In this document: positions 14,927-37,047 of the stretch, piece after piece
How the letters are laid out: every line of letters begins with the position of its first letter
Position numbering within the stretch: the first letter of the stretch is position 1
Assembly (NCBI GenBank): GCA_965214605.1
Contig: OZ243961.1
Span: 3,904,001-3,968,000, forward strand
Direction: 5' to 3'
Origin: an uncultured Candidatus Binatia bacterium
Lineage (GTDB): Bacteria > Desulfobacterota > Binatia > Bin18
Length of the DNA: 64,000 bases
Translations under genes and position numbers: made by a program
Notes under the pieces: generated by a model
What the model was told of the DNA's origin: nothing
The model's database searches: none
What the model saw: the letters and a program-made list of their open reading frames with translations, nothing else

Positions 14927-15394
14927 CTATAAAAACGGCTTCTTCTCCCAGCCCTGCTCATACGGCGTCCAAAAACTGGGAGTGACATTGAGGTGCTGAA
15001 ACTTCCACTCGCCGTTCACTCTCACATACGCCTCAGTATATGTTGCCGCTCCCCAAACCGCCTGCGTATTCTTGGCATAGGTGCAGGCCTGGAACAGACA
15101 CCAGTTGCCGGCGGCCGTCTCACCGTGCACCTCAATACGCGGATTCATGACATAATGGAGGGCAAAGGGGAGCTGTTTTGTGGCGCCGGAGAAGAACTTG
15201 CGGATTGCCGCCTGTCCTTCACATTTGCCGAACACATCCCCACCATCCCACACTCCATCTTCGACAAACAGACCGGCGATACCGTCTGGATCATAGCCGT
15301 CGTCACAAAAAGCGCAGTAGCGGGCTTTGAGGCGTTTGATCGCTTCGATATCTTCGAGGACCTGTAACCGTTGGGATAATGCTTCGAGATTCAT
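14927..15394 (-). CDS. SnoaL/NTF2-like protein (paralog of 783-1253)
   Basis: LEDIEAIKRLKARYC...HYVMNP...LFQACT, clearly homologous to the first copy. Confidence 0.88.
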   Translation of the reverse strand: MNLEALSQRLQVLEDIEAIKRLKARYCAFCDDGYDPDGIAGLFVEDGVWDGGDVFGKCEGQAAIRKFFSGATKQLPFALHYVMNPRIEVHGETAAGNWCLFQACTYAKNTQAVWGAATYTEAYVRVNGEWKFQHLNVTPSFWTPYEQGWEKKPFL

Positions 15395-15432
15395 GATGGT
15401 TCGATTAGTCTAGGGCTGCCGGATTGTCAAGC

Positions 15433-15461
15433 GAGAGACGGCTCAGATTGGGCCGTCTCTC
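15433..15461. terminator. 10-bp stem hairpin closing the mini-array
   Basis: GAGAGACGGC-9nt-GCCGTCTCTC; no clear U-tract. Confidence 0.5.
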
Positions 15462-15553
15462 CTCGTTGCTTTCCTCTCGACTCAGCGGGCACAATCCGAC
15501 CATCGCGCGTGGGCAGGTTTCAATCTCCTACGGAGCGTTGGCTTCATTTCGGA
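15452..15553 (-). CRISPR. detached one-spacer mini-array of the I-D repeat family
   Basis: 15517-15553 matches the main repeat at 32/37; 35-nt spacer 15482-15516; highly degenerate second repeat ending at 15481; leader motif at 15562-15578. Confidence 0.8.
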
Positions 15554-15680
15554 GCTCCGCAGCATTTTTCTTGTAAAAAGCAAGCCTGTTCCCTCTGCCG
15601 CTAGGCGATGTTCCGGGAAGAAAGGGCTCATTTTAAACGAGTTTCTATCCCCTCTTCTGCCTGTTGCGGGACAAGGCGAC

Positions 15681-15784
15681 ATGATGAGTGAGGCGAGGAA
15701 CTCGGTCAATTAGAAAAAAGGGATCCTGAGGGGAAAATCAGGCTCAGTCTCAACCTAGAGAGACTGAGCCTCGAAAAAAAGAGA
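15681..15784 (-). promoter_or_regulatory. second copy of the WYL promoter and palindrome
   Basis: TTGACC-17-CATCAT on minus strand; AGGCTCAGTCTC-N8-GAGACTGAGCCT at 15740-15771; homologous to 35731-35834. Confidence 0.8.
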
Positions 15785-15891
15785 TGGAGCGAACTTTTTC
15801 GCTATGGTGGCTACTGTCCGCTTTCTTAATCAGTTCACTACAGGATAGGGGTGCTTAGATAGTAGAAAGAGAACCCTCTTTCTAAGGAGCG

Positions 15892-16266
15892 GTGAGTCTG
15901 GAGGCCCGGCCCGGCAGGTCGCTCCTGTTCGCCGTCTATCCGGGCACCGAGCTGTCGAGTCCTGACCACTACATCCTATTCTACATCGGTAACGAGCCGC
16001 TGTCGTCCTGGCTGTTCCAGCCGGTGATCGTCAACGCCTGGTCGGGAGAGATGATCGCGGCGCCCGACATGCCCTGGTACATCACCATGCTGCTGCTCTC
16101 GCAGCCGCTGCACTTGGGGGACTACGGCGGGATCGGTCTCAAGATCGCGTGGGCGCTGCTCGACGTTGGCATGATCATCGTGCTGTGGAGCGGGCTCATG
16201 CTGTGGTGGCGGAAGTGCTCGAAGATACCCGAGATCGATCTCGGGCCCACCGGGGCGCCAGCATGA
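15892..16266 (+). pseudogene. C-terminal fragment of a PepSY-associated TM helix protein
   Basis: LSQPLHLGDYGGIGLKIAWALLD...WSGLMLW motif; N-terminal part absent. Confidence 0.75.
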
Positions 16267-16430
16267 ACGCCGCCACCTTGCGGCGCCTCTAGGCCTGGCC
16301 GCTCGCCATAGGAGCGGGCCTTGATTTCGGATTGGTCTGCGCACTGGTGGCGGATGGTTTCTGGGACGTCACCGGGGCGCTCTGTCTGGGCGCGCCAGCC
16401 GCGTTCTGTCTCTGGCTGACGGCCCGGGAA
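16263..16430 (+). pseudogene. small membrane protein remnant with in-frame TAG
   Basis: MNAATLRRL*AWPLAIG...GLVCALVADGFWD, resembling the small ORF that usually follows such PepSY genes. Confidence 0.5.
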
Positions 16431-16519
16431 ACACGCGGCGGAGTCGGCCCTGAGCGAAGTCTCTCCTGGACGGATGACCGACGGCTATCTCCAGGATGGC
16501 CGGTGACATGGAGCACGTA

Positions 16520-17410
16520 ATGAACAACGGCATCGAAGGTTTGCAGGTCACGAAACTGACGAAGACGTACCTGGGCGGCATCCGCGCTCTCGACGCCGTC
16601 GACCTGACGGTCGGCCTGGGCCTCTACGGCCTGCTAGGCCCCAACGGCGCGGGCAAGAGCACCTTGATGCGGACCCTAGCCACGCTGCAGCAGCCCGACA
16701 ACGGCTCGATCACGCTGGACGGAGTGGACGCGCTCGCCGACCCCGACTACGTGCGCCGGCGGCTGGGCTACCTGACGCAGCAGATCGGCACCTATCCGAC
16801 CGTCACCGGACGGCAGCTCCTGGAACCGTTCGCCTGGCTCAAGGGCCGGACCGACGCGGCGGAACGCCGGCGGGCGGTCGCCGAGCTCCTCGAGCGGGTG
16901 AACCTGTGGGCGGACGCGGATCGCGCCGTCTCCACCTACTCCGGGGGCATGCTGCGCCGGTTCGGCATCGCCCTGGCCGGCAACCCGCGGCTGCTCATCG
17001 TCGACGAGCCCACCGCCGGTCTCGACCCCGCCGAACGCAGCCGCTTCCACCGCGTGCTAGCCGACAGCGCTGCCGACAACATCGTGCTGCTGTCGACCCA
17101 TATCGTCGACGACATCGAGAGCCTGTGCGAGCGGCTGTCCATCCTCGCGGGCGGGCGGATCGTCGCCGAAGGAACGCCGGTTGCCCTGACCGCACCGCTC
17201 GAAGGCCGCCTCTGGTCGCGCGTGGTGCCGTGCGGCGAGCCGCTGCCGGACGCTGTGCTGCACGTTTCGGCGACGCCAGCGGGCTCGCTCGTCGTCGAGG
17301 CGGCCTCGACCCCAGGGGAGATCTGGGTGCCCCACGCGCCGAGACTGGAGGACGTCTACCACGCGGCGATCGCCCGCGCCGGGTTCCGGGACGAGGAGGC
17401 GGTGGCGTGA
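16520..17410 (+). CDS. ABC transporter ATP-binding protein (permease partner missing)
   Basis: GPNGAGKST, YSGGM, IVDEPTAGLD, STH. Confidence 0.85.
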   Translation: MNNGIEGLQVTKLTKTYLGGIRALDAVDLTVGLGLYGLLGPNGAGKSTLMRTLATLQQPDNGSITLDGVDALADPDYVRRRLGYLTQQIGTYPTVTGRQLLEPFAWLKGRTDAAERRRAVAELLERVNLWADADRAVSTYSGGMLRRFGIALAGNPRLLIVDEPTAGLDPAERSRFHRVLADSAADNIVLLSTHIVDDIESLCERLSILAGGRIVAEGTPVALTAPLEGRLWSRVVPCGEPLPDAVLHVSATPAGSLVVEAASTPGEIWVPHAPRLEDVYHAAIARAGFRDEEAVA

Positions 17411-17608
17411 CGATGCTGCGTTTCGTGGCCGCGGAAGGGAAGCGTGGTACGAGTTCCGCGCCGGTTGCCGGGGGCCGCGCGGCACCGTGGCCGCGCTCCA
17501 CGGACCGTAGCGCGTGCGCGATGCGGACGGGGTCCTCGACGACGTGACAGCGATGCACGCCTGCGTCACCGCGCCCCGCGGCCGCGCGCCATCGGTCCGC
17601 AGGGTGCT

Positions 17609-17698
17609 GCAGGCCCCGCGCGAGCGTGGAGAAACCCCGCGTACTTTTTAGAGAAAATCAACCGCAACAGCAGGCCCCGCGCGAGCGTGGAGAAACTG
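17609..17698 (+). CRISPR. orphan type I-E/IV-like mini-array (2 repeats, one 32-nt spacer)
   Basis: GCAGGCCCCGCGCGAGCGTGGAGAAAC identical at 17609 and 17670; 61-bp period. Confidence 0.55.
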
Positions 17699-18753
17699 CC
17701 CTCTATGGCGATGTGCTCTGGCTGCCCGAGCATGAGGGATGGGACATCGCGAGAGAGGCTTTCGGCCGCTGGCAGCGCCGCGCGACGATCGCGGCCGCGC
17801 TGGCGGCACGCCTGCTGGCGGACGGAGCCAACCTGCGGAAGAAGCCCGGCAAAGGCTGGCTGCGCGTCGGCGTACCCGGCTGGGTCGGGCTGGAGTGCGT
17901 CCGGCAGGGGGACGGCGTAGCATGGCTAGCGCTACAGGCGCGCCAGTGACCAGGTCATCGAAGCACTCGGCGCACTGAACGCTCCCGCCGTCGGCGTGGC
18001 CGCGGCGGGCGACGTGCCGTGGGTGCGGGAGTACACGCCCTTGGCAACGGTCGCTTGGGCAGAGTCGGTTGGGTCGGCCGCCGCCGACGCGGTTGGCGTG
18101 ATGGTCGAGCGGATGCGAGCAGGCGTCCCGCTGGCCGACGCCCTGGTAGAGGCCATCGGCACCGGTACCGCCGCGGCGCTTCTCGGACCGCTGGAGTCGT
18201 CGGACGTCCTGGTCGGGCAGGCGGAGCAGACCCTCAACAGTGGCGGCCAGCGATGGCTCTGGCGCGGCGGCGGCTGGAGCCGGTCGCCGCGACCATTCAC
18301 GTGATGCAGCGGTTCGACGACGACAGCGGCAGCCGGCGGCGGATCGGCCCGGTGCCGACGACGGTCGCCCCCGGCGCGCCGTTCACGTTGACCGACGCCT
18401 GGCCGTCGTTCGAACGGACGCCGATCGACAACCTCTGGCAGGGCCCCAGCGACGATTGACGCCCGCTGTCCGCGGAGAGTTCATGAATAACGGAGGAATC
18501 GCCTGGGTTCGCGCGGAGTCCGGTAAGTTGTGTGTAATGCGTTAGCCCGGAGATTCAAGTACCATGGGAACGGGGTTGGCCTCGTTCGGTTCTCCAGGTC
18601 CTTTGGCATAATCTCCGATCCTGCCGCTTTAACCAAGCGATTCTTCAGATATTCCATCTCTATTTTGTTATTAGCGAACAGACCGAAGACGAACCGAAGC
18701 GTCAGCCTCTGTTCTATCTCAAGAGTGTCAGGTATATAGACCGCCGTATAAAG

Positions 18754-21700
18754 GTTTCAATCTCCTACGGAGCTTTGGATTCGTTTCGACGTCCGCCGGG
18801 TCGATCAGCCCACGACGAATCATTTCGTTTCAATCTCCTACGGAGCTTTGGGTTCGTTTCGACCGCAAAGACCCAGAGAAGTTCGGGTATAAAATTGTTC
18901 CGTTTCAATCTCCTACGGAGCTTTGGGTTCGTTTCGACGAACATATTTTTGATGGGAAAAATACTTTAGTATTGTTTCAATCTCCTACGGAGCTTTGGGT
19001 TCGTTTCGACCAGAAGAAGGCTATCACGCCTGGGGACAACTTTTATTTCGTTTCAATCTCCTACGGAGCTTTGGGTTCGTTTCGACCCTGTTTTTCCCAG
19101 AACGGGGAAACCCGGTACTACGTGTTTCAATCTCCTACGGAGCTTTGGGTTCGTTTCGACTGTCTGTCTCAAGCGGCACGATCAGCCGCTTGTCATAGTT
19201 TCAATCTCCTACGGAGCTTTGGGTTCGTTTCGACCTTGAGGGTCTTCACGACCCGGTCAATAATGGTGAGGGTTTCAATCTCCTACGGAGCTTTGGGTTC
19301 GTTTCGACCGCCATGGAGCGCGGCGCGTCGAATAAGTATCCGACGGTTTCAATCTCCTACGGAGCTTTGGGTTCGTTTCGACCCTAGCCCTGGTCCCTCC
19401 TGCTCCAGCCCTCCCTGCTGTTTCAATCTCCTACGGAGCTTTGGGTTCGTTTCGACTCCCCCTGAAGCCCTTTTTGTGGGCTTCACGAGTCAGTTTCAAT
19501 CTCCTACGGAGCTTTGGGTTCGTTTCGACCCTAGAGCCAGCCAAAAGGAGATAACTATGGTTAATTGGTTTCAATCTCCTACGGAGCTTTGGGTTCGTTT
19601 CGACCGCCGAGCGGGAACTGCAAAAGCACTATCAGCTTGTTTCAATCTCCTACGGAGCTTTGGGTTCGTTTCGACCTTGAATGTGACTTAAGAGCTTGGT
19701 TCACCTACTTCTGTTTCAATCTCCTACGGAGCTTTGGGTTCGTTTCGACCAGGGACAGGGTGAGCAGAGAAGATCAGCTCGTTGAGGGTTTCAATCTCCT
19801 ACGGAGCTTTGGGTTCGTTTCGACGTCTCCCGCTCACCCTCCCTCCAACGAGTCGGCCCTGTTTCAATCTCCTACGGAGCTTTGGGTTCGTTTCGACTGC
19901 TCACTCCCTGCTCACTCCCTCCTTGGCTCACCCTGTTTCAATCTCCTACGGAGCTTTGGGTTCGTTTCGACGTCTCCCGCTCACCCTCCCTCCAACGAGT
20001 CGGCCCTGTTTCAATCTCCTACGGAGCTTTGGGTTCGTTTCGACCTCACGAAATGTTCCAACTCTTGCTTTGTCTACATCAGGTTTCAATCTCCTACGGA
20101 GCTTTGGGTTCGTTTCGACCTGGTAATCCCGCCAGCTCTTGCGCGGGCCTTTATAAATGGTTTCAATCTCCTACGGAGCTTTGGGTTCGTTTCGACATAG
20201 TCCCCTCACCGATAGGTAAAGCCGAGAATGCCAGTTTCAATCTCCTACGGAGCTTTGGGTTCGTTTCGACCCTGCAGTTTGTCGCGGACCGGCTGGGAGT
20301 GCGACCGGTTTCAATCTCCTACGGAGCTTTGGGTTCGTTTCGACCGGCGGTTCCGCGTTGCTTGGAGCCCGGGTACCCCCGAGTTTCAATCTCCTACGGA
20401 GCTTTGGGTTCGTTTCGACCCCCAGAACCCGGGTTATGCCCTGTCCGGCGAACTGAAGTTTCAATCTCCTACGGAGCTTTGGGTTCGTTTCGACCCACAG
20501 CGCCTGCTGGCCAACCACCTGGCCGCGTGACCGTTTCAATCTCCTACGGAGCTTTGGGTTCGTTTCGACCCGCAGGAGTGAGGTCGCCGGCCAAATTGCC
20601 CGTGCGAGTTTCAATCTCCTACGGAGCTTTGGGTTCGTTTCGACCCCTGTGAAGCCTCCACCCCAAGGCAAGGCACTCGCCTCAAGTTTCAATCTCCTAC
20701 GGAGCTTTGGGTTCGTTTCGACCCAATGCGTTCAACACCTCGTACACGCAAAATATCGTCGCGTTTCAATCTCCTACGGAGCTTTGGGTTCGTTTCGACC
20801 CCCGGGCAGCTCGTCATCTCAAGCCGCTATCTCGAGCGGTTTCAATCTCCTACGGAGCTTTGGGTTCGTTTCGACCCACCGGACAATATGACCGGTTGGC
20901 GGATGCCATAGTAGTTTCAATCTCCTACGGAGCTTTGGGTTCGTTTCGACCCCCTGGGGTAAGGTCCCCAGCAAGGTTACCAGTACGAGTTTCAATCTCC
21001 TACGGAGCTTTGGGTTCGTTTCGACCCCGACATAAGTAGCGTGGGTCTCAAGGCCAAGAAGGTTTCAATCTCCTACGGAGCTTTGGGTTCGTTTCGACTT
21101 GCTGCTCTGTGTAGGGTTGTCGGCCCAACTCAAGTTTCAATCTCCTACGGAGCTTTGGGTTCGTTTCGACGCCGAAGCTCTCGATGGCCTCGTTGGCGTC
21201 GCCGCGTTTCAATCTCCTACGGAGCTTTGGGTTCGTTTCGACCCCCAGACGGCCGCTGAGGCCGAAAAATCGGTATCGGTTTCAATCTCCTACGGAGCTT
21301 TGGGTTCGTTTCGACCGAACGCGGATAGGGAGCTCGCCTCTCTGCCGCGAGGCGTTTCAATCTCCTACGGAGCTTTGGGTTCGTTTCGACCCAGTTGAAA
21401 AGTTGATAATCCGGCCACGATCGCCAAAGTTTCAATCTCCTACGGAGCTTTGGGTTCGTTTCGACCCCAACTCCCCGAGTTCCATGGCCAAGTTCGCGGT
21501 CGCGTTTCAATCTCCTACGGAGCTTTGGGTTCGTTTCGACCCCAAGCGCGTCCGCCGCGTTCTTGACACGTATGGATGTTTCAATCTCCTACGGAGCTTT
21601 GGGTTCGTTTCGACCCCGCCCCCGCACTCCGCCCCACGTCGAACCCAGATCAGTTTCAATCTCCTACGGAGCTTTGGGTTCGTTTCGACCCGTCCCGAGG

Positions 21701-24384: not shown

Positions 24385-24583
24385 CCCCCCTAGGGCATTT
24401 TTCTTGTAAAATCAGGATCTTAAGGACCCTTTGGCGCGGGTCGCTGGTTTTCAGATGAATTTCTGAGCCTCTCCTCCCTACCTTTGGCAGTTGCATCTTC
24501 TCAACTCCTTGATCCTTCGGTATTTTCAAATAAACGCGGATCTACCCATATTTGATCAACAGCTTCGATACGCGCTGGATGAG
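24385..24583 (-). promoter_or_regulatory. CRISPR leader
   Basis: AT-rich non-coding region between cas2 and the first repeat; ends in G6 (24385-24390). Confidence 0.85.
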
Positions 24584-24859
24584 CTAGATAATGACCGCTC
24601 CTTCTTTTCGCGGTTTTTCTCCGCCTATACGTTTGATTTGTTGTTTGCAATGCTCACACAGAAAATAGAAGCGCACGCTATCATCCTCGCCCGGCCTGAT
24701 GAATTCGTTCAACCGGTCCTTTAAACGCGCCAGGTTCATTTTGTCAAGTTCACACTCAAAAACGCTATACTGCATCCACTGACCAAAATTCTTGAGCGTC
24801 TTAAAAACACGATTGCGTCGTTTGTCGCTGCGGATATCGTACGAGATGATAACAAACAT
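24584..24859 (-). CDS. cas2: CRISPR-associated endonuclease Cas2
   Basis: ISYDI...QYSVFEC...DSVRFY. Confidence 0.97.
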   Translation of the reverse strand: MFVIISYDIRSDKRRNRVFKTLKNFGQWMQYSVFECELDKMNLARLKDRLNEFIRPGEDDSVRFYFLCEHCKQQIKRIGGEKPRKEGAVII

Positions 24860-24882
24860 GCTCTTATTCCTTCCACTGAGTA

Positions 24883-25884
24883 TTATCGCACCACAAATGG
24901 CTCATACCGTTCGATCTCTCCCTGAACGCACTTGGCTAGGATGCGTGCCTGGAGTTCAAAACATCGTTGATATGTCGCGCGGTATGTAAACACCGGATGC
25001 TGTATTTCTGTTTGTTTGCGGACCTCGTATTGTGCTAGGAACTTCTTTCGTGCTTCTGGCTTGAGACGATGAACCTTTCCTAGGCTGACTTCGAAATCCG
25101 TAGTTTGAAGAACCCGCTTGTTGAGGCATGTTAAGACAACTGCGTCTACTACAATTGGGCGAAACTCCTCCATGAGATCCAAGGCCAATGACGGACGGCC
25201 ATACCGGTCGGCGTGCAAGTAACCGCAGTACGGATCAAACCCCAATACCTGTATAGCCGCGTGTATATCGCTGGCCAGCAGCGCATAACCAAAGCTGAGC
25301 AAAGCATTGACTGGGTCAGTCGGTGGCCGTCGCACGCGCTTTGGAAAAGAGACGCCCTCGGCTTTGATGAGCTGATTAAAGACGCTGAAATAGGCGGCTG
25401 AGCCCTCGCCCTCATGGCCACGCAGCGCGTCGAGATCTTCTGCACCCGCAAGGTGGCGTTCTGCTCGTCTGATTGTTTCCACGGTCCTATCAAGGTTCAA
25501 TCCTTCGGTATTGCGAGCCGCCCGTAATAATGTCACTCGAAGATTTGCTAGCTTGCCAGCAACAAATCCTCTGGCCAAAGTTAGGGTTCGATCCCGGTCA
25601 AAGGCCGCTACATATTGCGCCCGTCGAAGCAGCGAATTTTTGGACAAGGCGGGTTCAATGCGGCCGATATATCGGCCATGTTCCGTCAGATAAGTGAGGC
25701 AGACGCTTCTGTCCATCAAGGCCGCTACTGTGTGGGGTGTTACCGTTACCCGTCCCACTACCACGACCTGAGAAACTTTGAGCATGGGCAGGTCAAGTAG
25801 CTTTTTACCCTTGAGGGTGACCTTGAGGCGTTCATCTTCTTTGCGTAGTACCGAGTCCTGTTGAGTAAGATAGAGTGTAGACAT
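24883..25884 (-). CDS. cas1: CRISPR-associated endonuclease Cas1 (type I-D)
   Basis: MSTLYLTQQ start; RGHEG, RRPPTDPVNALLSFGY, LDLMEEFRP. Confidence 0.97.
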   Translation of the reverse strand: MSTLYLTQQDSVLRKEDERLKVTLKGKKLLDLPMLKVSQVVVVGRVTVTPHTVAALMDRSVCLTYLTEHGRYIGRIEPALSKNSLLRRAQYVAAFDRDRTLTLARGFVAGKLANLRVTLLRAARNTEGLNLDRTVETIRRAERHLAGAEDLDALRGHEGEGSAAYFSVFNQLIKAEGVSFPKRVRRPPTDPVNALLSFGYALLASDIHAAIQVLGFDPYCGYLHADRYGRPSLALDLMEEFRPIVVDAVVLTCLNKRVLQTTDFEVSLGKVHRLKPEARKKFLAQYEVRKQTEIQHPVFTYRATYQRCFELQARILAKCVQGEIERYEPFVVR

Positions 25885-25910
25885 AGGAAGAGGCTGTAGA
25901 CTGTGGGGAT

Positions 25911-26507
25911 TTACTCCTTGCTCGAGGGAGTCCGACCGCTCTGTAGCCGAGCGGTCTCTTTTGGAAGACAGAGGCCGTGTAAGCTGCAACCCTCGCAACG
26001 GGGAGTATAGGGGTTTGGTGGGCGCTGGCCGGACTCAATTAGCCGACGAACGACGCTAATCGTCTCAATTGTTTGCCGACGTAACATTTTGGTAAACTGC
26101 ACCTCCTTGCGTCGCCCTGTGGAGGCATAAAACAGATAGCCTTTTGGAATCTCCTGCCCCTGCATCTCCTCAAGACACAGGGCTTGAGCGCAGAGCTGGA
26201 GCTCATCGTTCGTCCACTTTCCGCGTCGACCTTTTTTGTGTTCAACCGGATAGAGCAAACCCGCTTTCTCTTCAATAACATCGGCCTTTCCGGTGAGACC
26301 GTAGGCATGAGAGTAGAGATATACGCTACGAAGCTGCAAGATGTCGTCCCGTCTGGTCGTTTCGTCAGAGTGCGAACGAGTGTGTTGAAGCGTGCCTTCT
26401 ACTGTATGTTCGTTGTCGAGAAAGGTATTTTCAACGAACAGATAATAACACCTCCGGGGGCAGTATTCGTATTGGTTCAAAGCAGAGATGTAGATGTAAT
26501 CGTCCAT
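25911..26507 (-). CDS. cas4: CRISPR-associated protein Cas4
   Basis: YCPR, GKADVIE, PVEHK, QLCAQ, CEGCSLHGLC Fe-S cysteines. Confidence 0.96.
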   Translation of the reverse strand: MDDYIYISALNQYEYCPRRCYYLFVENTFLDNEHTVEGTLQHTRSHSDETTRRDDILQLRSVYLYSHAYGLTGKADVIEEKAGLLYPVEHKKGRRGKWTNDELQLCAQALCLEEMQGQEIPKGYLFYASTGRRKEVQFTKMLRRQTIETISVVRRLIESGQRPPNPYTPRCEGCSLHGLCLPKETARLQSGRTPSSKE

Positions 26508-26522
26508 AAGAGAACCTGTCGC

Positions 26523-27377
26523 TTAAGCCCTAATCCTCCGAGCCATTCCAAAGCCCATCGTCGTGCGCGCGCCAATACCAGAGAAGAAGGCCAGATCGGC
26601 AAGCGCGTTGAGTTGCTTGTTTAGCTCTCCTATGGCGCTGCCGCACAAGCGGAAATGGCAGGTGCCAACGAATCCAGGAAACCCTGTCGTGCGGTATTGT
26701 CCGTCGGCCCTTGGAAACACGAGCCGTGCCTGCTGCGATGAAATGCGGTGGGACATCATTTCCAGATTATGAGCAAAGATATCTTTCAGCAGCGCTTCAT
26801 CAGGAAAGGGTAGGGGAGAGAACTGGTTCCAGTTTTGGAGCAGGCTACCAAAAAGCAACTCCGGTAAGGGGAGGGGAACCATCAAATCCGGGTAGGCGGC
26901 CCCCCCCCCACGTTTGAAGAACGTTGGCGTGACAAAGTGGAAGGAAAAGAGTTTTTCTTCCACTGAGGCCTGGTCGTATATATCCTCAAAAGAACAACAG
27001 CCCGCCCAAGCTTCATTGCTGTGTGGAGTGCTCAGAATACGGGCGACTGTCAAGTCCGTCCGGACCAGCTCAAGCCTGAGAGCTGGCGCAGTCAGAAAAT
27101 AACGGGATAGAAGAGGATAGATCGCATCATCCAGAAAGGTGAATCGAATTCTCAGTTCCTCGCCTGCACGTATCTTCTCTGCCCGCCGCTGACGATCGTC
27201 CAGCAGAAGAGTAGTGGAAAAGGGCTTGAGCCCGGATATATCATGGACCTCATCCCCTTTGGCTACGCTTGCCTTTTGGAGCAGTTCATAAAAGATACCG
27301 TGCAGGATCTTACCCTGGGTGTGAAGCACGGGCATATCCGTACTGGGGAAGGCGTAAATGACGAGGGCGTAGGGCAT
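26523..27377 (-). CDS. cas6: CRISPR-associated endoribonuclease Cas6
   Basis: FVTPTFF, PLPLPELLFGSL, C-terminal GIGARTTMGFG loop. Confidence 0.95.
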   Translation of the reverse strand: MPYALVIYAFPSTDMPVLHTQGKILHGIFYELLQKASVAKGDEVHDISGLKPFSTTLLLDDRQRRAEKIRAGEELRIRFTFLDDAIYPLLSRYFLTAPALRLELVRTDLTVARILSTPHSNEAWAGCCSFEDIYDQASVEEKLFSFHFVTPTFFKRGGGAAYPDLMVPLPLPELLFGSLLQNWNQFSPLPFPDEALLKDIFAHNLEMMSHRISSQQARLVFPRADGQYRTTGFPGFVGTCHFRLCGSAIGELNKQLNALADLAFFSGIGARTTMGFGMARRIRA

Positions 27378-27443: not shown

Positions 27444-29789
27444 CTATGCTATCCACCACTCTCCCGTCTGTCGTTTGAGCGACCAACCATAACGACCCAT
27501 GACCTTATAACCATCTAAGCCATCTAGAAGGCGGAGTTTTCTTGGAGGGGAACAATCTTCTGCAAAGGTGATGTTGAGATCCGTATAATGAATTCCCTCC
27601 CGGATAAGCCTGCCCCATTGCCAGGGCTTGAGATCATCAGTATCAAGAATAAAGCAGGGGATGTAGCGTGTAGAGAGGACCTCGGTCATCCGATCTAGAT
27701 CTGGAATGGGAACAATTGCTCCCTGTTGTTTCAGACTGAGGGAGAGCTTCGGAAGGGCGGTTGGCTTTTTCGTATAACGCCTCCGAAAATCTCTCCAGCT
27801 ACCTTCAAAATGCCGTATCCAGCTTACCTGTAAAGGCTGATCTAGGATGTCCCGGAGGATAACCTTGAGGTTGCCTTTCTCGGGATGCGACTCTGCCTTG
27901 AGCCGCCAAGAGTAGAATCGGAGGAGGTGAAAAAGCCTGAGTTGTACAGTCTCGCGGGCCGGTGATACCAATCCGTGCGGGTCGTCAGCCTCAATCTCTA
28001 TGCCAATGTCAGGGTTGCGAAAGCTGAATATTGGCCGAAGTGCGACCTCTTCACGGACAAGATAGTCACGAAGTTGTTCCCGGCCCCGGTCCGTGGATAG
28101 AATTTGTTCTACCTTGCCCTTGACCTCCTCTTTGCTTAGAACTAGTTCTCCTTCCTCTCGCGCATATTCGCGTAAAGCCCTGACTACCGCGGTGCCAGGT
28201 TTCATATTGGACTGCCGCAATTCCTGCTGCAAACGGCGGAAGTCCTGCAAACGGCGGATCTCTCCTTTCAGCCTCCGAAGGGTTCTTTTACTCGAAGGAG
28301 CGTAGACCCGCTTAATCCTGTCAAATGTCTGCTCAATGATGTCCCCGTTCTCTCCCAGCAGTCGTTGCATTTCTGATAGCGGTTGGGCCACCTCAAGCAG
28401 GGTATAGGAGCTAATGTATTCTGCAAATGAAGGGCGATGCATATCTCCATTTGCAGCTTCATGTAATAAACTCTTTAGTTCTGTCCGAGAAAGAGCAACG
28501 TCTTCTCCAATTTTTTCATGCAGTCTACGCCAGGGCTCGTCTGGGATGAAGGCAAATCCAAGAGATGGAGCGTCTTGAATTCGTTTGCCTAGGACGCGGC
28601 CTCCGCGTCCTAGGCGTTGCCAAAATTGATCTTCTAACAACGCCTCAAAACCCACAAAGTCGAGGTTTTGTTGATCCTTTGCTCGGCCCTCAAAGTTGAA
28701 ACCAATGTCTACCGTAGGCGTGGCAAGAAGGAGAGGTCTGAAACGAGCCTGTTTTCGTTCCTCCTTTCCCAGTGGGCCGGTTATTCTTCCGACATTCTGT
28801 ACCCCGAGTCTACGCTCGAACTTTCTGGCAAGACGATTCACACCATATAAGCTGTTGAGGAGAATTGCCCCATCGTTTTTTTGCTCAACCAGATTGGCAA
28901 TTTGTTCGATACAGGAGGAAAATTCTCTGGCTGCATCTCGCGTATACGGGAATAGCTCCAGCTCCAACTTGGTCAGGCTTTTGGTTGTCAGACGGTCAGG
29001 CACCGTTGCGGGTTCCGGATCCAATCTTTTGATCGAAATCCCTTCGTCGGCTAATCGCTCAACGAAGAGATTCAGATCCGAATCAGGCGTTGCTGTGAGC
29101 AAACAAATTTTTCTCCGCTCGGTTTGACTAGGCGCGAAGTAGCCAAACGCTTTGGACAGTAGAACAAAGAAGAGTAAGTTAGCGAATTGTTTAGCGTCGT
29201 AGTAGTGGACTTCGTCGATAATAATGTACTGAAACTTACTAATGAACTGCTCGGCGATATTGCGCTGGTCAAGGCGATTAAAGAGGTAGAAAATGCCGTA
29301 ATAAAACAGGTCAGGATTCGTCACCAGGACGAGAGGAGGCTTTGCGCTGCGTTGGGAGTTTTGTGCCTTCAGGACCAGTGATGGGTTGGTGAGAATCCGG
29401 TAGAACCGCTCGCCAGGTCTTTTTCCAAGGGTGTCGGGTAGCTCTCGCAAAAAAGCGGCATCCACGCTCTCCACAACATGAGGCAAGCCAGCGGTTGCGA
29501 TAAATTGCTTCACATCCTGAGCATGTTGTCTTACTAGTTCATTTACCGGAGCGATGAACAGGGTGTTGACCTGTGGGTGATTGAGGAGCCACAGAAGAGC
29601 AGCCTTCGTTTTGCCCGTACCAGTGGGGAAAGCATTGAGGACCATATCGTGCTCTGCCAGGGCCGAAACCGTGTCCATTTGATGTTGGAGGGGGGTGGGC
29701 AATACTCTGTGAATGTTGATCGGGACGGTCTCAGGTGCAGCAATTCGTTCATATTCTGCCCCAAGATGGATACGGATTGGTCTGGTCAT
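27444..29789 (-). CDS. cas3: type I-D helicase Cas3' (no HD domain)
   Basis: PTGTGKT, DEVH, TAT, TVDIGFNF, QRLGRGGR. Confidence 0.93.
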   Translation of the reverse strand: MTRPIRIHLGAEYERIAAPETVPINIHRVLPTPLQHQMDTVSALAEHDMVLNAFPTGTGKTKAALLWLLNHPQVNTLFIAPVNELVRQHAQDVKQFIATAGLPHVVESVDAAFLRELPDTLGKRPGERFYRILTNPSLVLKAQNSQRSAKPPLVLVTNPDLFYYGIFYLFNRLDQRNIAEQFISKFQYIIIDEVHYYDAKQFANLLFFVLLSKAFGYFAPSQTERRKICLLTATPDSDLNLFVERLADEGISIKRLDPEPATVPDRLTTKSLTKLELELFPYTRDAAREFSSCIEQIANLVEQKNDGAILLNSLYGVNRLARKFERRLGVQNVGRITGPLGKEERKQARFRPLLLATPTVDIGFNFEGRAKDQQNLDFVGFEALLEDQFWQRLGRGGRVLGKRIQDAPSLGFAFIPDEPWRRLHEKIGEDVALSRTELKSLLHEAANGDMHRPSFAEYISSYTLLEVAQPLSEMQRLLGENGDIIEQTFDRIKRVYAPSSKRTLRRLKGEIRRLQDFRRLQQELRQSNMKPGTAVVRALREYAREEGELVLSKEEVKGKVEQILSTDRGREQLRDYLVREEVALRPIFSFRNPDIGIEIEADDPHGLVSPARETVQLRLFHLLRFYSWRLKAESHPEKGNLKVILRDILDQPLQVSWIRHFEGSWRDFRRRYTKKPTALPKLSLSLKQQGAIVPIPDLDRMTEVLSTRYIPCFILDTDDLKPWQWGRLIREGIHYTDLNITFAEDCSPPRKLRLLDGLDGYKVMGRYGWSLKRQTGEWWIA

Positions 29790-30547
29790 TGTCGGGCCCT
29801 TCGCCGACCTCTTCTACGAGGCGGGGCATCGGCAGGTAATCTGAACATCATTCCGGCCGGTATCCGAATGTCGTCTAGATAGCACATGCGGCCAGAAAGC
29901 TGAGCGTTAATGATGAGCGGGACGGGCGGTAGGTTGAACAGATCATGATAGCCGACCTCGACCGTCGGAGGCAGGTCGAGAGGATTAAGGAATATCTCGA
30001 CCTGCTCGGCCTGAACGTCCTGAGTCGGTGGATCTTGCCATGTCTGAGTGACCTCAAGGCGTATTTTCCCCATAAACTTTCCGAGACGAATGTAGCGAGG
30101 GAGAGAGACAGATTCCCGAGAGAACACATAGCAGCGGAAACGGTTTCCCCGGGAGAGCACGCGGAGTCGTCCTTTCTGGGGGAAGTTGGTAGCTGGAGCA
30201 CGAATGCTGTCAAGACGGACGGCGAGATCGGCAACAATTGCATTGTTTGCCATTTTATACCAGTACGAATCGACCATACCGTTAAAACGCTCAACCTCCA
30301 GCGCGGGTGTTCCCACAGGAGTGCCCGGGGTTACATAGAGACCTTTCTTGTTGAGACCTCCGAGGTCTTCTCGATAGTAAGGGCGGTCCTCTCGGTCTGA
30401 CTGCCGATAGGGCGATAAACAGAACCCCAGCGCATAGGTCAGCGCGTAGTTGCCGAGCACGGGCTCTGTCTGGAACAGTTCATCGATTTCTCGGCTCGCA
30501 AAGAAGACCTTCTCATGCAGGGTGAGATCAAGACGATAGACAAACAT
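29786..30547 (-). CDS. cas5: type I-D Cas5/Csc1
   Basis: LHEKVFFASRE...NYALTYALG...PRYIRLGKFMGK. Confidence 0.92.
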   Translation of the reverse strand: MFVYRLDLTLHEKVFFASREIDELFQTEPVLGNYALTYALGFCLSPYRQSDREDRPYYREDLGGLNKKGLYVTPGTPVGTPALEVERFNGMVDSYWYKMANNAIVADLAVRLDSIRAPATNFPQKGRLRVLSRGNRFRCYVFSRESVSLPRYIRLGKFMGKIRLEVTQTWQDPPTQDVQAEQVEIFLNPLDLPPTVEVGYHDLFNLPPVPLIINAQLSGRMCYLDDIRIPAGMMFRLPADAPPRRRGRRRARQ

Positions 30548-30555
30548 AAGGCTTC

Positions 30556-31536
30556 CTACTGTCTCTTTTTTGTCACGGCTGAAGTAGGATAAGATTCGTC
30601 AAGACGCCGGAGAAAAGCTTCTGGAGCTTCATATGTCTTCTTCACCTCGACCAGAAACTCGTCAAGCCGCGGCCCGCTCATTACCTGATAGTCTCCGATA
30701 GTTTCCGAGAGGAGATTTGTCAGGACGCCGTCCTCTCCGCGAATAGCCGAAACAATCTCAGTCGTTTGTAACGGGTGTTCCTTGTCAGTGAGGCGTTGAT
30801 AGGTTGCCTGAGTCAGCTCTAAGGAGCTGAAGATTTCAGTCCGGGAAAAAACAAGGCCAAGAATACTGTTCTGGACTCTCCCGATACGAGACGAAATGGC
30901 ACCGTAGCGGGAGCTCCGCAAAATGTTTCCGCACGCATAAAGCAGTTCGTCAGCAGTGACATCTTTGAGGACTTCGAGGTCAATGAAATGCGACTCAGGT
31001 TTAACGTACTCGCTTTCGTTGATGCTTGTTGACGGCTCTCCGGTGAGAGGATTACGCATGGTACCATTGTCAAAGAGTGCATTAAAAGTCTTGGTGTCTA
31101 CAATTGAAGGAGCCGGTAGCAAGGAGAAGGCATCTTCGGTCAAAACCCTCGATTTTTGAGCCCCTCCCCCACCAGCCGCAAATCCATAGAGCCAACAGTC
31201 TACACATTGCTCACAGGGATTATTGGTGTTGAGCATACACTCTTCTGTCCCATCTTTGATTTTTTTGAGGAGGCCAAAACTTCGCAACAGTTCTCTGCCC
31301 GTCCGGCGTTCAACAGCGGTTTGTTTGCGCTTGGAAATGACGATTCGGGGAATCACTTCACTGTCATTGAGTCCTGCTCGGACAAACTCACGGTTCAACG
31401 GCTCACCGCTTCCTTCGGTCCGAAAGATGGCCTCGGATTTTGTTTCACGTAGGACAATAAGGTTCACATATCGCCCTTGGGGCAGATTGGAATATTCACT
31501 CAGCAGAAAATCTGGGTACGCGCTCAGTGTATTCAT
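30556..31536 (-). CDS. cas7: type I-D Cas7/Csc2
   Basis: SEAIFRTEG, SKRKQTAVERR, CVDCWLYG, RYGAISSR. Confidence 0.95.
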   Translation of the reverse strand: MNTLSAYPDFLLSEYSNLPQGRYVNLIVLRETKSEAIFRTEGSGEPLNREFVRAGLNDSEVIPRIVISKRKQTAVERRTGRELLRSFGLLKKIKDGTEECMLNTNNPCEQCVDCWLYGFAAGGGGAQKSRVLTEDAFSLLPAPSIVDTKTFNALFDNGTMRNPLTGEPSTSINESEYVKPESHFIDLEVLKDVTADELLYACGNILRSSRYGAISSRIGRVQNSILGLVFSRTEIFSSLELTQATYQRLTDKEHPLQTTEIVSAIRGEDGVLTNLLSETIGDYQVMSGPRLDEFLVEVKKTYEAPEAFLRRLDESYPTSAVTKKRQ

Positions 31537-31554
31537 CTTCTCTCCTTCCGCTTT

Positions 31555-31995
31555 CTACTCGGGGCTTTCAGCGTTTATCGCTTCCTTGGTGTTATTTCTT
31601 TCTTCCCGTTTGTCTTGGAGGGCTGCGTTCAAGTAAAAGAGGTACGCTTCCTTCAGAGATTTTTCGTCACTGAGAAAGCGGGCGAAGCTGTTTCCATAAC
31701 TCTCGCGCAGTAAGTCATAGAATACTGCAACGAAACGGGTAATCTTTTCGTGCTTGGCTGCGCCGGGCTTATACTGAGGATCGGCCAGGCGTTCTATACG
31801 ATCGAAGATAGCCTGACTTGTTGCAGCCTGGACGGCGTCGAGATCGAGCGGTTCTGACTTGCGCCGCAAACGGTCGAAGGCAAGAGTCAGTGGATCAAGT
31901 AAAGAGTTCCGTTTAAAGCTGCTCCCTCGCAAAGTGTGCTCCGCCGCAAGTTTGGCCATGGTCTTCAAACGCGTTGATACGGCCTGTTCTGCCAT
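31555..31995 (-). CDS. cas11d: Cas11d small subunit from an internal in-frame start in cas10d (146 aa)
   Basis: GGAGG-7nt-ATG (MAEQAVSTRL...) inside the cas10d C-terminus. Confidence 0.75.
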   Translation of the reverse strand: MAEQAVSTRLKTMAKLAAEHTLRGSSFKRNSLLDPLTLAFDRLRRKSEPLDLDAVQAATSQAIFDRIERLADPQYKPGAAKHEKITRFVAVFYDLLRESYGNSFARFLSDEKSLKEAYLFYLNAALQDKREERNNTKEAINAESPE

Positions 31996-34558: not shown

Positions 34559-34583
34559 GTTACAGAGGTCACAACTTTCCTGA
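34559..34583 (+). promoter_or_regulatory. GTT PAM plus partial protospacer for the crRNA-like element
   Basis: GTT-ACAGAGGTcacaaCTTTCCTgA; overlaps a minus-strand TAACAT -10-like box (34557-34562). Confidence 0.65.
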
Positions 34584-34631
34584 AAGAGAGTCAATAGGAT
34601 AAAAAAATCTGGCTGGTGTCAATATAGTAGG

Positions 34632-34712
34632 GAAGGCCCGCTCAACAAAGTCTGTAAGACATTGAAATACAGAGGTTTTTTCTTTCCTAATTTCTCCGTA
34701 GGAGCTTGATTC
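34632..34712 (+). ncRNA. crRNA-like regulatory RNA (CreR/CreA-like)
   Basis: CAAA-GTCT-GTA-AGAC-ATTGAAAT, 25-nt guide, then CTCC-GTA-GGAG-CTTGATTC; TATAGT -10-like box at 34623-34628. Confidence 0.72.
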
Positions 34713-34741: not shown

Positions 34742-35722
34742 TTATCCTGGCTCTTGGGTTGGTTGCGAATCGGCATACACTTCCGCCAACCGCTCCGCCG
34801 TCTGTCCTAATTCCTGCCGCAAACTCTCCGGCTCCAAAACTTCTGCCTCAGCTCCCCACTGCAACACCCACCAGCCGACTTCGCGGGGTTCGCTGACCTC
34901 GACCTCAAACAGCAGACTGCCGTCTTGCTCTTCGGTAAGTTCCTGTGAATGGTGCCAGCAGGCTTCACGGATGAACGGTGCAATACGTTTAGCAAAACGT
35001 ACTCGGACCCGTTGAACCGTGTCCCCTACAAACACACTGAAGGCGTGTCGATGCCGCCGGGCAAAGTTATATGCAGGGCGGCGGGTGAAGTGTACCGGCA
35101 GCTGCTGGACCTCGGAAATGCGGTTGACCCGAAAGACCGAGTCCCTTCCGACTTTGGGACTGTAGGCATCAAGATACAGCGCTCGGCGTTTGAAGTAGAC
35201 CTGGTACGGATTGATCGTATGGGTCTTGGCCGTCTCGTCGCTCGGACGGGTATAGACAATCGTCACCTGTCGGCAAGCCTGGACCGCTCGGGTGAGTTCC
35301 TCCAGAATATCTCGTCGGCAGCCAAAGCCCTCCCGAAGCACCACTTCGTTCAAGCATGTGTTGAGGATTTCCCGCTGCCCGCCCTGAGCGTTGACAATCA
35401 TCTTTTTGATTGCTTCCAGAGCGTCATAGGTCAGAACGAAATCGCCCGCTGCCGAGAGCTGACGGACCGCCATGGTCAAGGCCAACATCTCGGTCATGGT
35501 CAGGTCGTAGACAGGGAGGTAGGGCTCTTTATGGATGACAAAGCGGTTTTGTTGCCGAGAGTAGGAGTAGATAAATCCTATTTTTTTGAGGGCTTCCTTG
35601 TCGCGGTAGTACTGGGCTTTTCCTATGCCGAGTGAATTCCACAGGTTCTCCGGCGATTGGTAAGGGTCGGTTTTGACCTTGGTTGCGTGCAGCAATAAAC
35701 GGCTGGATTTGTTTGTATCCAT
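34742..35722 (-). CDS. wHTH-WYL-WCX transcriptional regulator
   Basis: YYRDKEAL HTH, INPY...LYLDAY...FRVNRI WYL core, WVLQWGAEAEVLEPESLR WCX. Confidence 0.93.
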   Translation of the reverse strand: MDTNKSSRLLLHATKVKTDPYQSPENLWNSLGIGKAQYYRDKEALKKIGFIYSYSRQQNRFVIHKEPYLPVYDLTMTEMLALTMAVRQLSAAGDFVLTYDALEAIKKMIVNAQGGQREILNTCLNEVVLREGFGCRRDILEELTRAVQACRQVTIVYTRPSDETAKTHTINPYQVYFKRRALYLDAYSPKVGRDSVFRVNRISEVQQLPVHFTRRPAYNFARRHRHAFSVFVGDTVQRVRVRFAKRIAPFIREACWHHSQELTEEQDGSLLFEVEVSEPREVGWWVLQWGAEAEVLEPESLRQELGQTAERLAEVYADSQPTQEPG

Positions 35723-35730
35723 CGCCTGAC

Positions 35731-35819
35731 ATGCTAGGCAGAGTGGGAAACTCAGTCAATTAGAAAAAAGGAATCCTGATAAGGAAAATTACGCTCAGTC
35801 TCAACCTGGAGAGACTGAG
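35731..35819 (-). promoter_or_regulatory. WYL promoter (probably leaderless) with upstream palindrome
   Basis: TTGACT-17-TAGCAT ending 8 nt before ATG; CTCAGTCTC-N8-GAGACTGAG at 35794-35819. Confidence 0.75.
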
Positions 35820-35853
35820 TCTCGAAAAAAAGAGACGGGGGCGAGGGCATGGA

Positions 35854-36030
35854 GCGAATTTTTCCGTCGGTCTCAAAGCGGTTGATGCTCTGCGGCTGGC
35901 GTCGACCGTAGCCAGAGCAGTCGCCTCTTTCTGTACTTGTGATTCTCGCTTCTTGAAACGAGCCGGGGAGATGGATACGAAACGTGCAAAAGTCATGTCC
36001 CCTTATAGAGCTCGTTGTGGAGTTGCATAA
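35854..36030 (+). pseudogene. C-terminal remnant of a PIN-domain protein
   Basis: Manual translation GLKAVDALRLAST...FCTCDSRFLKRA...KVMSP, then apparent frameshift to ELVVEL. Confidence 0.55.
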
Positions 36031-36213
36031 CGAAGGTCGAGTTCAAGCTTCCGAGTGAAACTACTTGGAAAGCACTTGCTTTGCCCTCAAAAGAGATGGG
36101 GATTTTGGATACCGTGGCTCGTCCCCTCTCCCTCCAGGAGAGAGACGGAACAAAAGACGTGTGGGGCGGAGCTTGCCAAGCGGACAGACAGGAGAGAACT
36201 GGCAGGGCTACAA

Positions 36214-37047
36214 CTAATCCTTAATCCCCAAGAACCGGTCAATCAACTGCTGCGCTAGGGCGGCTCCGGGTAGGGCGATGCCCACATCATGCCCCAGTTC
36301 TAAGGCTAGGCGTAGGTCTTTATGCATCAGCTGCACCAAGGCGTCCTGGCCGCTGGTATAGGTGTCTTTGAAGCTGCGTTGGGCCAGCCAGTTGTCGGCC
36401 ACGCGGCTTTGCCCGGCACCGGCTTTGACAACTTCTTGGAAGACGTTCGGATCAAGACCGGCGGTTTCGGCCAGCTTTATGCCCTCAGAGGCGGATAACA
36501 TGTTGACGTAGACAATCAAATTATGGGCCAGTTTGGCCACAGCACCCATGCCGAGATCGCCCAAATGAAAAATATTTGCTCCCGAGGTTTCAAACACGGG
36601 GCGACATTTTTCAAACGCGGCCTTATCGCCGCCGACCATATAGCAGAGGGTCTGGGCTTGGGCGCCGCGTTCGCCACCGCTGACCTCGGCATCGATCACG
36701 CTCACCCCGCGGGCCTGGGCCAATTCGGCGACCTTGCGGATCGTGCGGGGATGCACGGTGCTGTGAATCGCAATTACACTACCGGACTGGGCGCCGCTCA
36801 GCACGCCGCCCTCTTCGAGGGTCACGGCTTCGACCTGAGCGTCGTCTACCACAACGAGTTCAATAATCTCGCCGTGGGCGCCGATTTCATGGGCTGAACG
36901 CGCCCTTTTGGCCCCGGCCCTGGCTAGCTCGGACAAGGGTTCTTCGCGCAGATCGTAGACCATCAGGTCGAAACCGGCCTTGGCGACGTTGAGCGCCATG
37001 GGTTTGCCGATATTACCAAGACCAATAAAACCAACACGGGTGGTCAT
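36214..37047 (-). CDS. NAD(P)-dependent 3-hydroxyisobutyrate dehydrogenase family
   Basis: GFIGLGNIG, DAEVSGG, KLAHN, KDL. Confidence 0.9.
   Translation of the reverse strand: MTTRVGFIGLGNIGKPMALNVAKAGFDLMVYDLREEPLSELARAGAKRARSAHEIGAHGEIIELVVVDDAQVEAVTLEEGGVLSGAQSGSVIAIHSTVHPRTIRKVAELAQARGVSVIDAEVSGGERGAQAQTLCYMVGGDKAAFEKCRPVFETSGANIFHLGDLGMGAVAKLAHNLIVYVNMLSASEGIKLAETAGLDPNVFQEVVKAGAGQSRVADNWLAQRSFKDTYTSGQDALVQLMHKDLRLALELGHDVGIALPGAALAQQLIDRFLGIKD

Follow-up and report, generated by a model that had tools for sequence, protein, structure and literature searches.

A detached one-spacer CRISPR unit on the minus strand, 3.2 kb beyond the last repeat of a resident type I-D array (a distance that an earlier note on this DNA had given correctly, counted from the repeat at 18751), is real and CRISPR-derived, and we judge it reasonably probable that the unit is a rearrangement relic of an array from a sister type I-D lineage. 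Homology can be traced for each of its pieces, its second repeat is cut, the distal part of its leader is missing, relatives lack it, and its spacer has no detectable target. In this reconstruction, positions 15475-15800 would combine a paralogous WYL-gene promoter with the leader-proximal scrap of a sister-lineage array: no more than ~55 nt of leader, among them a conserved 17-nt motif, then the first repeat, a single spacer, and the initial 7 nt of a second repeat. Rearrangements during the building or remodeling of the island would have joined the scrap to the promoter and left it at the border.

The window (the whole 64,000-nt stretch of DNA that was analyzed, G000:C1:3904001-3968000) is part of a 4.37-Mb genome whose closest named relatives are Candidatus Binatia MAGs. 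Pfam and NCBIfam models identify a complete type I-D CRISPR locus on its minus strand (Table 1). The 75 spacers of the main array measure 34 to 41 nt, with a length of 35 nt found in 3 of them, and one spacer is present twice, as part of a 110-nt unit that recurs with 100% identity (19788-19897 and 19935-20044).

Table 1. Features of the orphan unit and of the resident type I-D locus (window coordinates)
Feature	Position	Strand	Basis or remark
SnoaL-upstream intergenic DNA and stem-loop	15433..15474	.	15453-15474 homologous to CRISPR-less relatives
Repeat-2 stub, 7 nt, 6/7 to repeat start	15475..15481	-	Cut at junction with ancestral DNA
Spacer, 35 nt, 69% G+C	15482..15516	-	Length in main-array range
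Repeat R1, 32/37 to resident consensus	15517..15553	-	Hairpin and 8-nt handle intact
17-nt leader block	15562..15578	-	Identical to 24395-24411
Predicted transcribed stretch, ~100 nt, without significant leader similarity	15579..15680	-	Local alignment
Promoter-like site TTGACC-17-CATCAT	15681..15709	-	9/12 score
Paralogous WYL-gene promoter copy (T-run, palindrome, second small hairpin, -35)	15699..15800	-	Alignment, promoter model R1
Palindrome, 12-nt arms, 8-nt loop	15740..15771	-	Arms 15740-15751 / 15760-15771, 100% complementary
Main array, 76 repeats	24384 down to 18751	-	
Main-array leader, 199 nt	24385..24583	-	Carries 17-nt block at 24395-24411
Cas4, Cas1, Cas2	24584-26507	-	Pfam/NCBIfam
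Cas6	26523-27377	-	Pfam/NCBIfam
DEAD-box helicase = Cas3'	27444-29789	-	Cas3' assigned from locus position
Csc1	29786-30547	-	NCBIfam
Csc2	30556-31536	-	Pfam
Cas10d/Csc3	31555-34377	-	NCBIfam
WYL/WCX regulator	34742-35722	-	Pfam/NCBIfam
Resident WYL-gene promoter, other copy	35722..35836	-	Promoter model R1, 90.3 bits

The intergenic region between the WYL and cas10d genes (34632-34712, plus strand) holds two repeat-like elements that are antisense to the cas genes. Element 1 consists of a small hairpin and ATTGAAAT (21/37 to the repeat), while element 2, which follows 25 nt later, carries the exact repeat hairpin and CTTGA (15/16, a match reached by 0 of 300 shuffles). The window contains a single GTT-flanked 8-nt seed match to the 25 nt that separate the two elements; it lies 107 nt away at 34559-34586, where the cas10d promoter is presumed to be, and agrees at 16/25 positions overall. 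By analogy, the pair looks like the type I-D regulatory mini-arrays described by Shmakov et al. It is not conserved in the 55 other genomes of the order, and the WYL-cas10d spacer region has no similar sequence in relatives. Upstream of cas6 in the host genome, 27378-27414 (21/37 to the repeat) is a ribosome-binding region only.

Repeat R1 had been described as retaining its hairpin and handle with all five mismatches in its 5' half, and this description proved accurate. Its differences from the resident consensus fall at positions 1, 2, 8, 12, and 17 only, its 3' 20 nt are identical to the consensus (20/20), and the Cas6d hairpin and the 8-nt 5' handle, ATTGAAAC, are those of the resident repeat. 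By an arithmetic estimate, five random changes would all fall within the first 17 of 37 positions with a chance of ~0.014; this conservation pattern reflects constraint at some time, not necessarily at present. Besides R1, no site outside the arrays of the genome scores above 25/37 to the repeat, and the sites that reach 25/37 include another CRISPR array. When the orphan block was searched with Rfam, CRISPR-DR10 was matched on R1 only, at 26.3 bits, which is below its gathering score of 39. The spacer reported downstream of R1 is likewise there, and its length is typical of the resident array, whereas the second repeat that a type I-D array (at least two repeats with a typical spacer) should contain matches the consensus at only 16 of 37 positions. 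Contigs from runs X1, X3, and X5, which belong to two studies, cover 15360-15781 or 15196-15763 without a gap and carry the identical single spacer; the unit is static. Contigs of run X6, from another organism, align to SnoaL and to the PepSY/ABC part and not to the orphan block, a weak observation that was set aside. The predicted orphan transcript has a folding z score of -1.9, and its minimum-energy fold lacks the Cas6 hairpin; this fold is uninformative. A possible third repeat at 15677-15641 (18/37, ending in GATAGAAAC) was rejected because 93 of 300 shuffles do as well, and repeat-like sequence at 15785-15900 and upstream of the resident WYL promoter (35836-36213) proved to be at chance level.

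A closer look at the second repeat points to a break rather than to decay. The score of 16/37 for 15481-15445 is reached by ~1% of window positions, and it is unevenly distributed: the first 7 nt match at 6 positions, and positions 8 to 37 match at 10 of 30, which is chance level. The segment 15453-15474 instead aligns with the DNA upstream of the SnoaL gene in two CRISPR-less relatives, at 19/22 in G006 (0 of 1,000 shuffles) and at 18/22 in G007 (7 of 1,000 shuffles); the corresponding alignments with G004 and G003 were not significant. Since this ancestral homology extends to 15474, 30 of the 37 nt of "repeat 2" are flank, and the repeat itself was truncated ~7 nt in by a junction with ancestral DNA and not decayed by mutation. 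The decayed second repeat of the earlier note is thus not borne out. The stem that the same note placed after it as new does exist, with 15433-15445 pairing with 15449-15461, but it is not new throughout, since the right arm (15452-15461) is ancestral DNA; the left arm and loop are an insertion of ~11 to 19 nt specific to the host genome.

The position of this junction is defined by seven same-genus genomes, none of which has a type I-D repeat match and none of which has CRISPR at the orphan position. All seven are homologous to the window from 12362 to 15432-15444, the oligopeptidase-SnoaL region, at 72 to 82% identity (79 to 82% in six of them), and in all seven no homology was found from there to 18740. 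On the far side, homology restarts at 36212-36214 in five of the seven (36212 in G002) and at ~37060 in the other two. The two island flanks lie ~4 kb apart in G006 and G007, and a divergent luciferase-like gene sits next to SnoaL in all four relatives compared there. Given that flanking homology ends and resumes at the island edges, the ~20.7-kb island (about 15475-36213) is specific to the host species, and it seems to have replaced ancestral DNA upstream of the SnoaL gene. The orphan patch occupies 0.4 kb at the extreme edge of this island and has a G+C content like that of the CRISPR locus; it is bounded, and separated from the array trailer, by a 2.6-kb high-G+C block that contains a truncated PepSY_TM gene. 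This block (15892-18500) has a G+C content of 66 to 73%, compared with 48 to 52% in its neighbors, encodes a C-terminal PepSY_TM fragment, an ABC ATPase, and two frames without a family match, and probably has a foreign, G+C-rich origin. The 11-nt direct repeat formed by 15452-15462 and 15931-15941 does not qualify as a target-site duplication, since what lies beyond it is not a continuation of the ancestral DNA.

At its other end, the unit is joined to a copy of the promoter of the WYL gene. The alignment of 15784-15699 with 35835-35749, immediately upstream of the WYL gene, shows 89.7% identity over 87 nt (E value of 2e-21), which bears out the claim of a WYL promoter copy, and both the palindrome and the TTGACC-17-CATCAT site were found where they had been reported (Table 1). 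The latter is the sole promoter-like site in 15300-16000, where shuffles lead one to expect 0.3, and its 17-nt spacing equals that of the WYL promoter. The orphan copy scores 75.4 bits with promoter model R1. Up to the -35 element, the orphan and resident promoters agree at 73 of 81 positions and are closer to each other than either is to the promoter of L017 (67/82 for the orphan, 66/82 for the resident copy). Over the promoter spacer and -10 region, the orphan copy matches the resident promoter at 13 of 24 positions, compared with 21 of 24 between the resident promoter and L017. Since CATGTC is in register between the two copies, their homology probably runs through the -10 element, and it probably ends at the transcription start. 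The orphan copy thus retains the conserved palindrome, -35, and -10 of a WYL-type promoter with a diverged promoter spacer. Among the 9 differences in 87 nt, none affects the palindrome arms or the -35, an outcome with a chance of ~0.05 by an arithmetic estimate. Together, the copies form a direct repeat, with one copy located a few hundred bases in from either end of the island.

The WYL-linked promoters of the related type I-D loci L017, L019, L020, and L023 share a palindrome with conserved arms, TTGAC, a TAGCAT-like -10, and an ATG 8 to 9 nt further on. The ATG of the resident WYL gene lies 8 nt past the -10 (35722-35740); because of this short distance, the WYL mRNA is probably leaderless. 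The palindrome arms are conserved in sequence rather than through compensatory change, which suggests a site for a protein, and the copy in the orphan unit is a candidate WYL operator or hairpin. The SnoaL gene has its ATG 7 nt past a TAATCG hexamer that TTGACA precedes by 17 nt (15394-15430), and its mRNA is probably leaderless too.

Between promoter and repeat, the only segment with clear leader homology is the 17-nt block. Its identity to the main leader, stated in the earlier note, is complete (17/17). The motif is common to the type I-D leaders of relatives, where it stands 8 to 10 nt before repeat 1. The block is identical in G041/G438 and G451 and has 2 to 3 changes (at least 14/17) in G019, so it is best regarded as a family motif, with no evidence for copying of the resident leader. 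A comparable pattern is found in the repeats: the 3' 20 nt are common to the type I-D arrays of G041/G438, G451, G019, and G016, and the 5' 17 nt vary. Because R1 differs from the resident repeat as these lineages differ from one another, it resembles a repeat from a sister type I-D lineage. The junction between block and repeat is 8 nt at R1, as in G041 and G451, and 10 nt in the resident array. Searches for a donor returned no match to the variant repeat at up to 3 mismatches in 400 sampled genomes of the phylum and no exact match in metagenome contigs.

The stretch upstream of the block (15579-15680) is unique in the genome and aligns locally with four type I-D leaders no better than its shuffles do (432, 91, 232, and 122 of 500), whereas real type I-D leaders score 69 to 303 against one another. 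An alignment by eye of these upstream 100 nt with leaders was rejected, since it was not significant relative to shuffles. A weak motif-I-like stretch lies ~41 to 51 nt before R1, and the orphan leader is at most ~55 nt long. According to Kieper, Almendros, and Brouns (2019, PMC6607411), type I-D leaders are 202 to 220 bp long and contain three motifs; leaders of 60 bp permitted weak acquisition only, and shorter ones almost none. The main leader and those of relatives fit these lengths. By eye, the main leader has GCCAAA ~50 nt before repeat 1, and the leaders of G041, G451, and G016 have TTGGC in their distal part, both of which can be compared with the motifs of PMC6607411. Set against a full leader of ~200 nt with proximal and distal motifs, as that study describes it, the orphan has the proximal part only. 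Going by the text of the same study, the 17-nt block is not among its three named motifs.

We found no counterpart of the orphan unit in the 55 other genomes of the order; it is present in same-species contigs only, which is not the conservation expected of a regulatory mini-array. Matches to promoter model R1 occur in 9 of the 56 order genomes, with two copies in the host genome alone. G041/G438, whose WYL protein is 84% identical, have a single such promoter and lack a comparable detached unit. At the DNA level, their locus (L037) matches the host locus at 82% in the WYL gene and at 77% from cas6 to cas2, but the effector genes (cas10d through cas3'; 27444-34377) cannot be aligned; lineages seem to have exchanged the effector module. 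The G041/G438 locus also lies in a different genomic place. Since a related locus is found elsewhere with effector genes that do not align, the type I-D system is mobile and modular.

Several relatives have irregular type I-D elements of their own. G016 has two detached repeat-spacer-repeat units (L053 on contig C12 and L054 on contig C21) in ordinary intergenic regions, far from both the WYL gene and the 12-repeat array of that genome; neither has the leader block, and the repeat variant that they carry deviates by 2 to 4 nt from the main-array repeat. In the cas operon of G438, a solitary type I-D repeat whose 3' half is perfect (L056, G438:C1:3011855-3011891) stands ~30 nt upstream of the start of cas6, where it may provide Cas6 with a cleavage site in the cas mRNA. 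G451 has a WYL-type promoter element without a WYL gene behind it (L049/L055, G451:C1:3988000-3999300), and no WYL match was obtained in that genome at an E value of 1e-10. A normal leader, a two-spacer array, and a decayed terminal repeat follow ~9 kb downstream of that element; the locus may be a shrinking type I-D locus.

The absence of a target of the orphan spacer in the window, already stated in the earlier note, was confirmed: no GTN PAM is followed by a seed run of more than 6 nt, and the longest run, 9 nt, lacks GTN. In the genome, too, full and seed matches of the spacer are at chance level. With every sixth position left free, seed runs of at least 10 nt occur at 71 sites in the genome, and GTN is present at 1 of them, compared with ~4 expected by chance; this single GTN-flanked 10-nt run lies in long open frames, i.e., in coding sequence. 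The exact spacer was found in no viral contig and in no metagenome contig, and blastn against phage and plasmid records gave only E values of 1 or more; as the former searches covered exact matches and the latter were at BLAST level, a diverged protospacer would escape them. A blastn-short comparison with the fetched type I-D and other loci gave nothing above 15 nt at 93% (E value of 1). Thus, among these loci, the spacer matches no cas gene of a related system, as an anti-cas spacer would, and in the window and the genome it has no PAM-flanked partial match with a seed of at least 10 nt in a cas or cargo promoter. Two candidate sites were rejected: one of the ~40 runs of 7 nt in the window falls on the WYL -10 (35741) but lacks a PAM, and a 22/35 match in the ABC gene (16816-16782, PAM GAG) is attributable to chance. 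With regard to a CreTA-like module, in which the guide would repress the promoter of an adjacent small toxin gene, the spacer has no target nearby in the window, the block has no family match with Rfam beyond that on R1, and a 66-codon frame with AGA AGA was noted by eye.

These results bear on several alternatives to a relic. Type I-D regulatory mini-arrays have been reported by Shmakov et al. (10.1101/2023.03.03.530964), the host locus seems to hold one between WYL and cas10d, and the orphan has kept an intact handle, hairpin, and palindrome as well as its promoter elements, all of which would suit a selected regulatory guide (of the crlRNA, CreR, or CreA kind) that is made from the WYL-type promoter and lets Cascade repress a promoter without cleavage. 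We nevertheless regard such a role as unlikely, because the searches above found no partial target, because the unit is not conserved in relatives, which is the criterion used by Shmakov et al., and because it is not part of the cas operon and has its second repeat truncated at a junction. Equally unlikely, in our estimation, is a guide kept outside the cas operon on purpose, so that the WYL regulator, besides controlling its own gene, would release one fixed, non-updating crRNA upon its signal. Cascade would then use it against a recurrent mobile element that has not been sampled or for crRNA-like repression of a distant gene. The promoter repeats bracket the cas genes and the main array, and recombination between them would delete the island; the guide would remain under a hybrid promoter, so that it would mark, and outlast, the loss of the island.

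We also considered that the promoter, rather than the guide, is the functional part, with the WYL-type copy reading into SnoaL and the next gene to place them under WYL control and with the repeat and spacer as passengers. The copy does face SnoaL (14927-15394, minus strand), which lies ~290 nt downstream, and no U-tract terminator follows the stem at 15433-15461, but SnoaL keeps its own TTGACA-type promoter, which is common to all four aligned relatives, the genome-specific stem-loop with 13-nt arms in front of that promoter could block read-through, and nothing links SnoaL to defense; this capture therefore strikes us as improbable. Still more improbable is a young second type I-D array that continues to acquire spacers for ordinary immunity. 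Its leader-proximal block and first repeat are present, and weak acquisition with short leaders is reported (PMC6607411), yet the distal leader motifs are missing, the second repeat is cut rather than duplicated, and the same single spacer is found in three runs from two studies. Finally, the weakness of the second repeat is all that speaks for a chance resemblance with no CRISPR origin, which we find scarcely credible in view of a 32/37 repeat that is unique outside the arrays, a 17/17 block in register with it, and the 87-nt promoter match.

The reading that we prefer, a relic of a sister-lineage array, does not require the unit to be silent. The wiring of promoter to repeat is real at the level of the sequence, with the copied promoter ~125 nt upstream of R1, and the unit may still be transcribed from it; if the palindrome is the WYL operator, WYL would control the orphan and the regulator gene alike. 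Cleavage by resident Cas6d after R1, whose hairpin is intact, and trimming of the 3' end by nucleases of the host could yield one ordinary, fixed guide that the resident type I-D Cascade could load. Since type I-D crRNAs are reported to be trimmed at their 3' ends to 39 to 49 nt in native hosts (PMC10212523), a downstream hairpin is not strictly needed, and by analogy a single guide would be processable in principle. The processable, WYL-coregulated guide of the earlier note is to this extent compatible with the promoter wiring and the intact hairpin and handle, but the regulatory, homing, or decoy role assigned to it finds no support, and there is no evidence that the orphan guide has a role of its own. 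The alternative given in that note, what is left of another type I-D locus after its collapse, agrees better with the cut second repeat, the short leader, and the lack of conservation.

Some observations sit less well with a relic. The palindrome, the -35, the register of the -10, the 17/17 block, and the 20/20 repeat end are all intact, which would also fit present selection. At least 2 to 3 breakpoints are needed, which is less parsimonious than a single event. Detached one-spacer units recur in G016, and such units may be more than debris. The intact functional motifs and the recurrence in G016 keep the functional readings alive.

Orphan and degenerate CRISPR arrays that arise when cas loci are lost or replaced are a known class, said to include the RliB array of Listeria and the orphan I-F arrays of E. 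coli that Almendros and colleagues reportedly described in 2016. Like them, the unit is short, detached from cas genes, and located in a variable defense region, and its repeat is compatible with the resident system, so that processing in trans is possible. Unlike them, it has one complete repeat, a paralog of a regulator promoter in place of a leader promoter, and a cut second repeat, and its spacer has no anti-cas or other target that we could find.

According to Shmakov et al. (2023), regulatory type I-D mini-arrays target the promoter of cas10d or the promoters of cargo genes upstream of cas10d. The orphan shares with these mini-arrays, and with CreR (10.1101/2023.03.10.532045), a standalone repeat and a spacer-like stretch near cas genes, and a degenerate second repeat is also reported for the mini-arrays. 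However, the latter are described as lying in or directly upstream of the cas operon, as conserved, and as having a PAM and a seed match of at least 10 nt, none of which applies to the orphan. As with Sll7009 of Synechocystis, a WYL regulator is encoded beside type I-D cas genes here. Loss of Sll7009 is reported to raise crRNA levels (PMC10212523; 10.1101/2023.12.07.570523), so there is a precedent for crRNA production under WYL control; in the present case, by contrast, the link would be a duplicated promoter and candidate operator in front of a detached guide. Within the literature that they covered, our searches for CRISPR in Binatia returned incidental mentions only, and there was no description of a regulator-promoter copy that drives a detached guide.

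If the unit is a relic, it would be a clean, datable example of the rebuilding of a CRISPR-cas island, in which the insertion border retained a regulator promoter and part of an earlier or sister array, with a breakpoint that CRISPR-less relatives allow one to place within a few bases. It would also serve as a warning that the "decayed terminal repeats" of mini-arrays can be flanking DNA. Expression of the unit would mean that a detached guide RNA is driven by the promoter and candidate operator of a regulator, providing a handle for testing what type I-D WYL regulators sense and control. Under either reading, the impact is local and not field changing.

Further CRISPR sequence was encountered elsewhere in the host assembly. 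The 1,208-base contig C2 of G000 is a type I-D array throughout, with 16 resident-type repeats and 15 spacers, none of which (0/15) is shared with the main array; the contig is a strain variant or else a second array that the assembly leaves unplaced. Beyond the window, at least 25 copies of a different repeat, also with the ending ATTGAAAC, form a second CRISPR array (G000:C1:1687758-1689739). A solitary variant repeat at C1:1681712-1681748 lies 6 kb from this second array and is accompanied, 27 nt on, by a handle-like second 9-mer.
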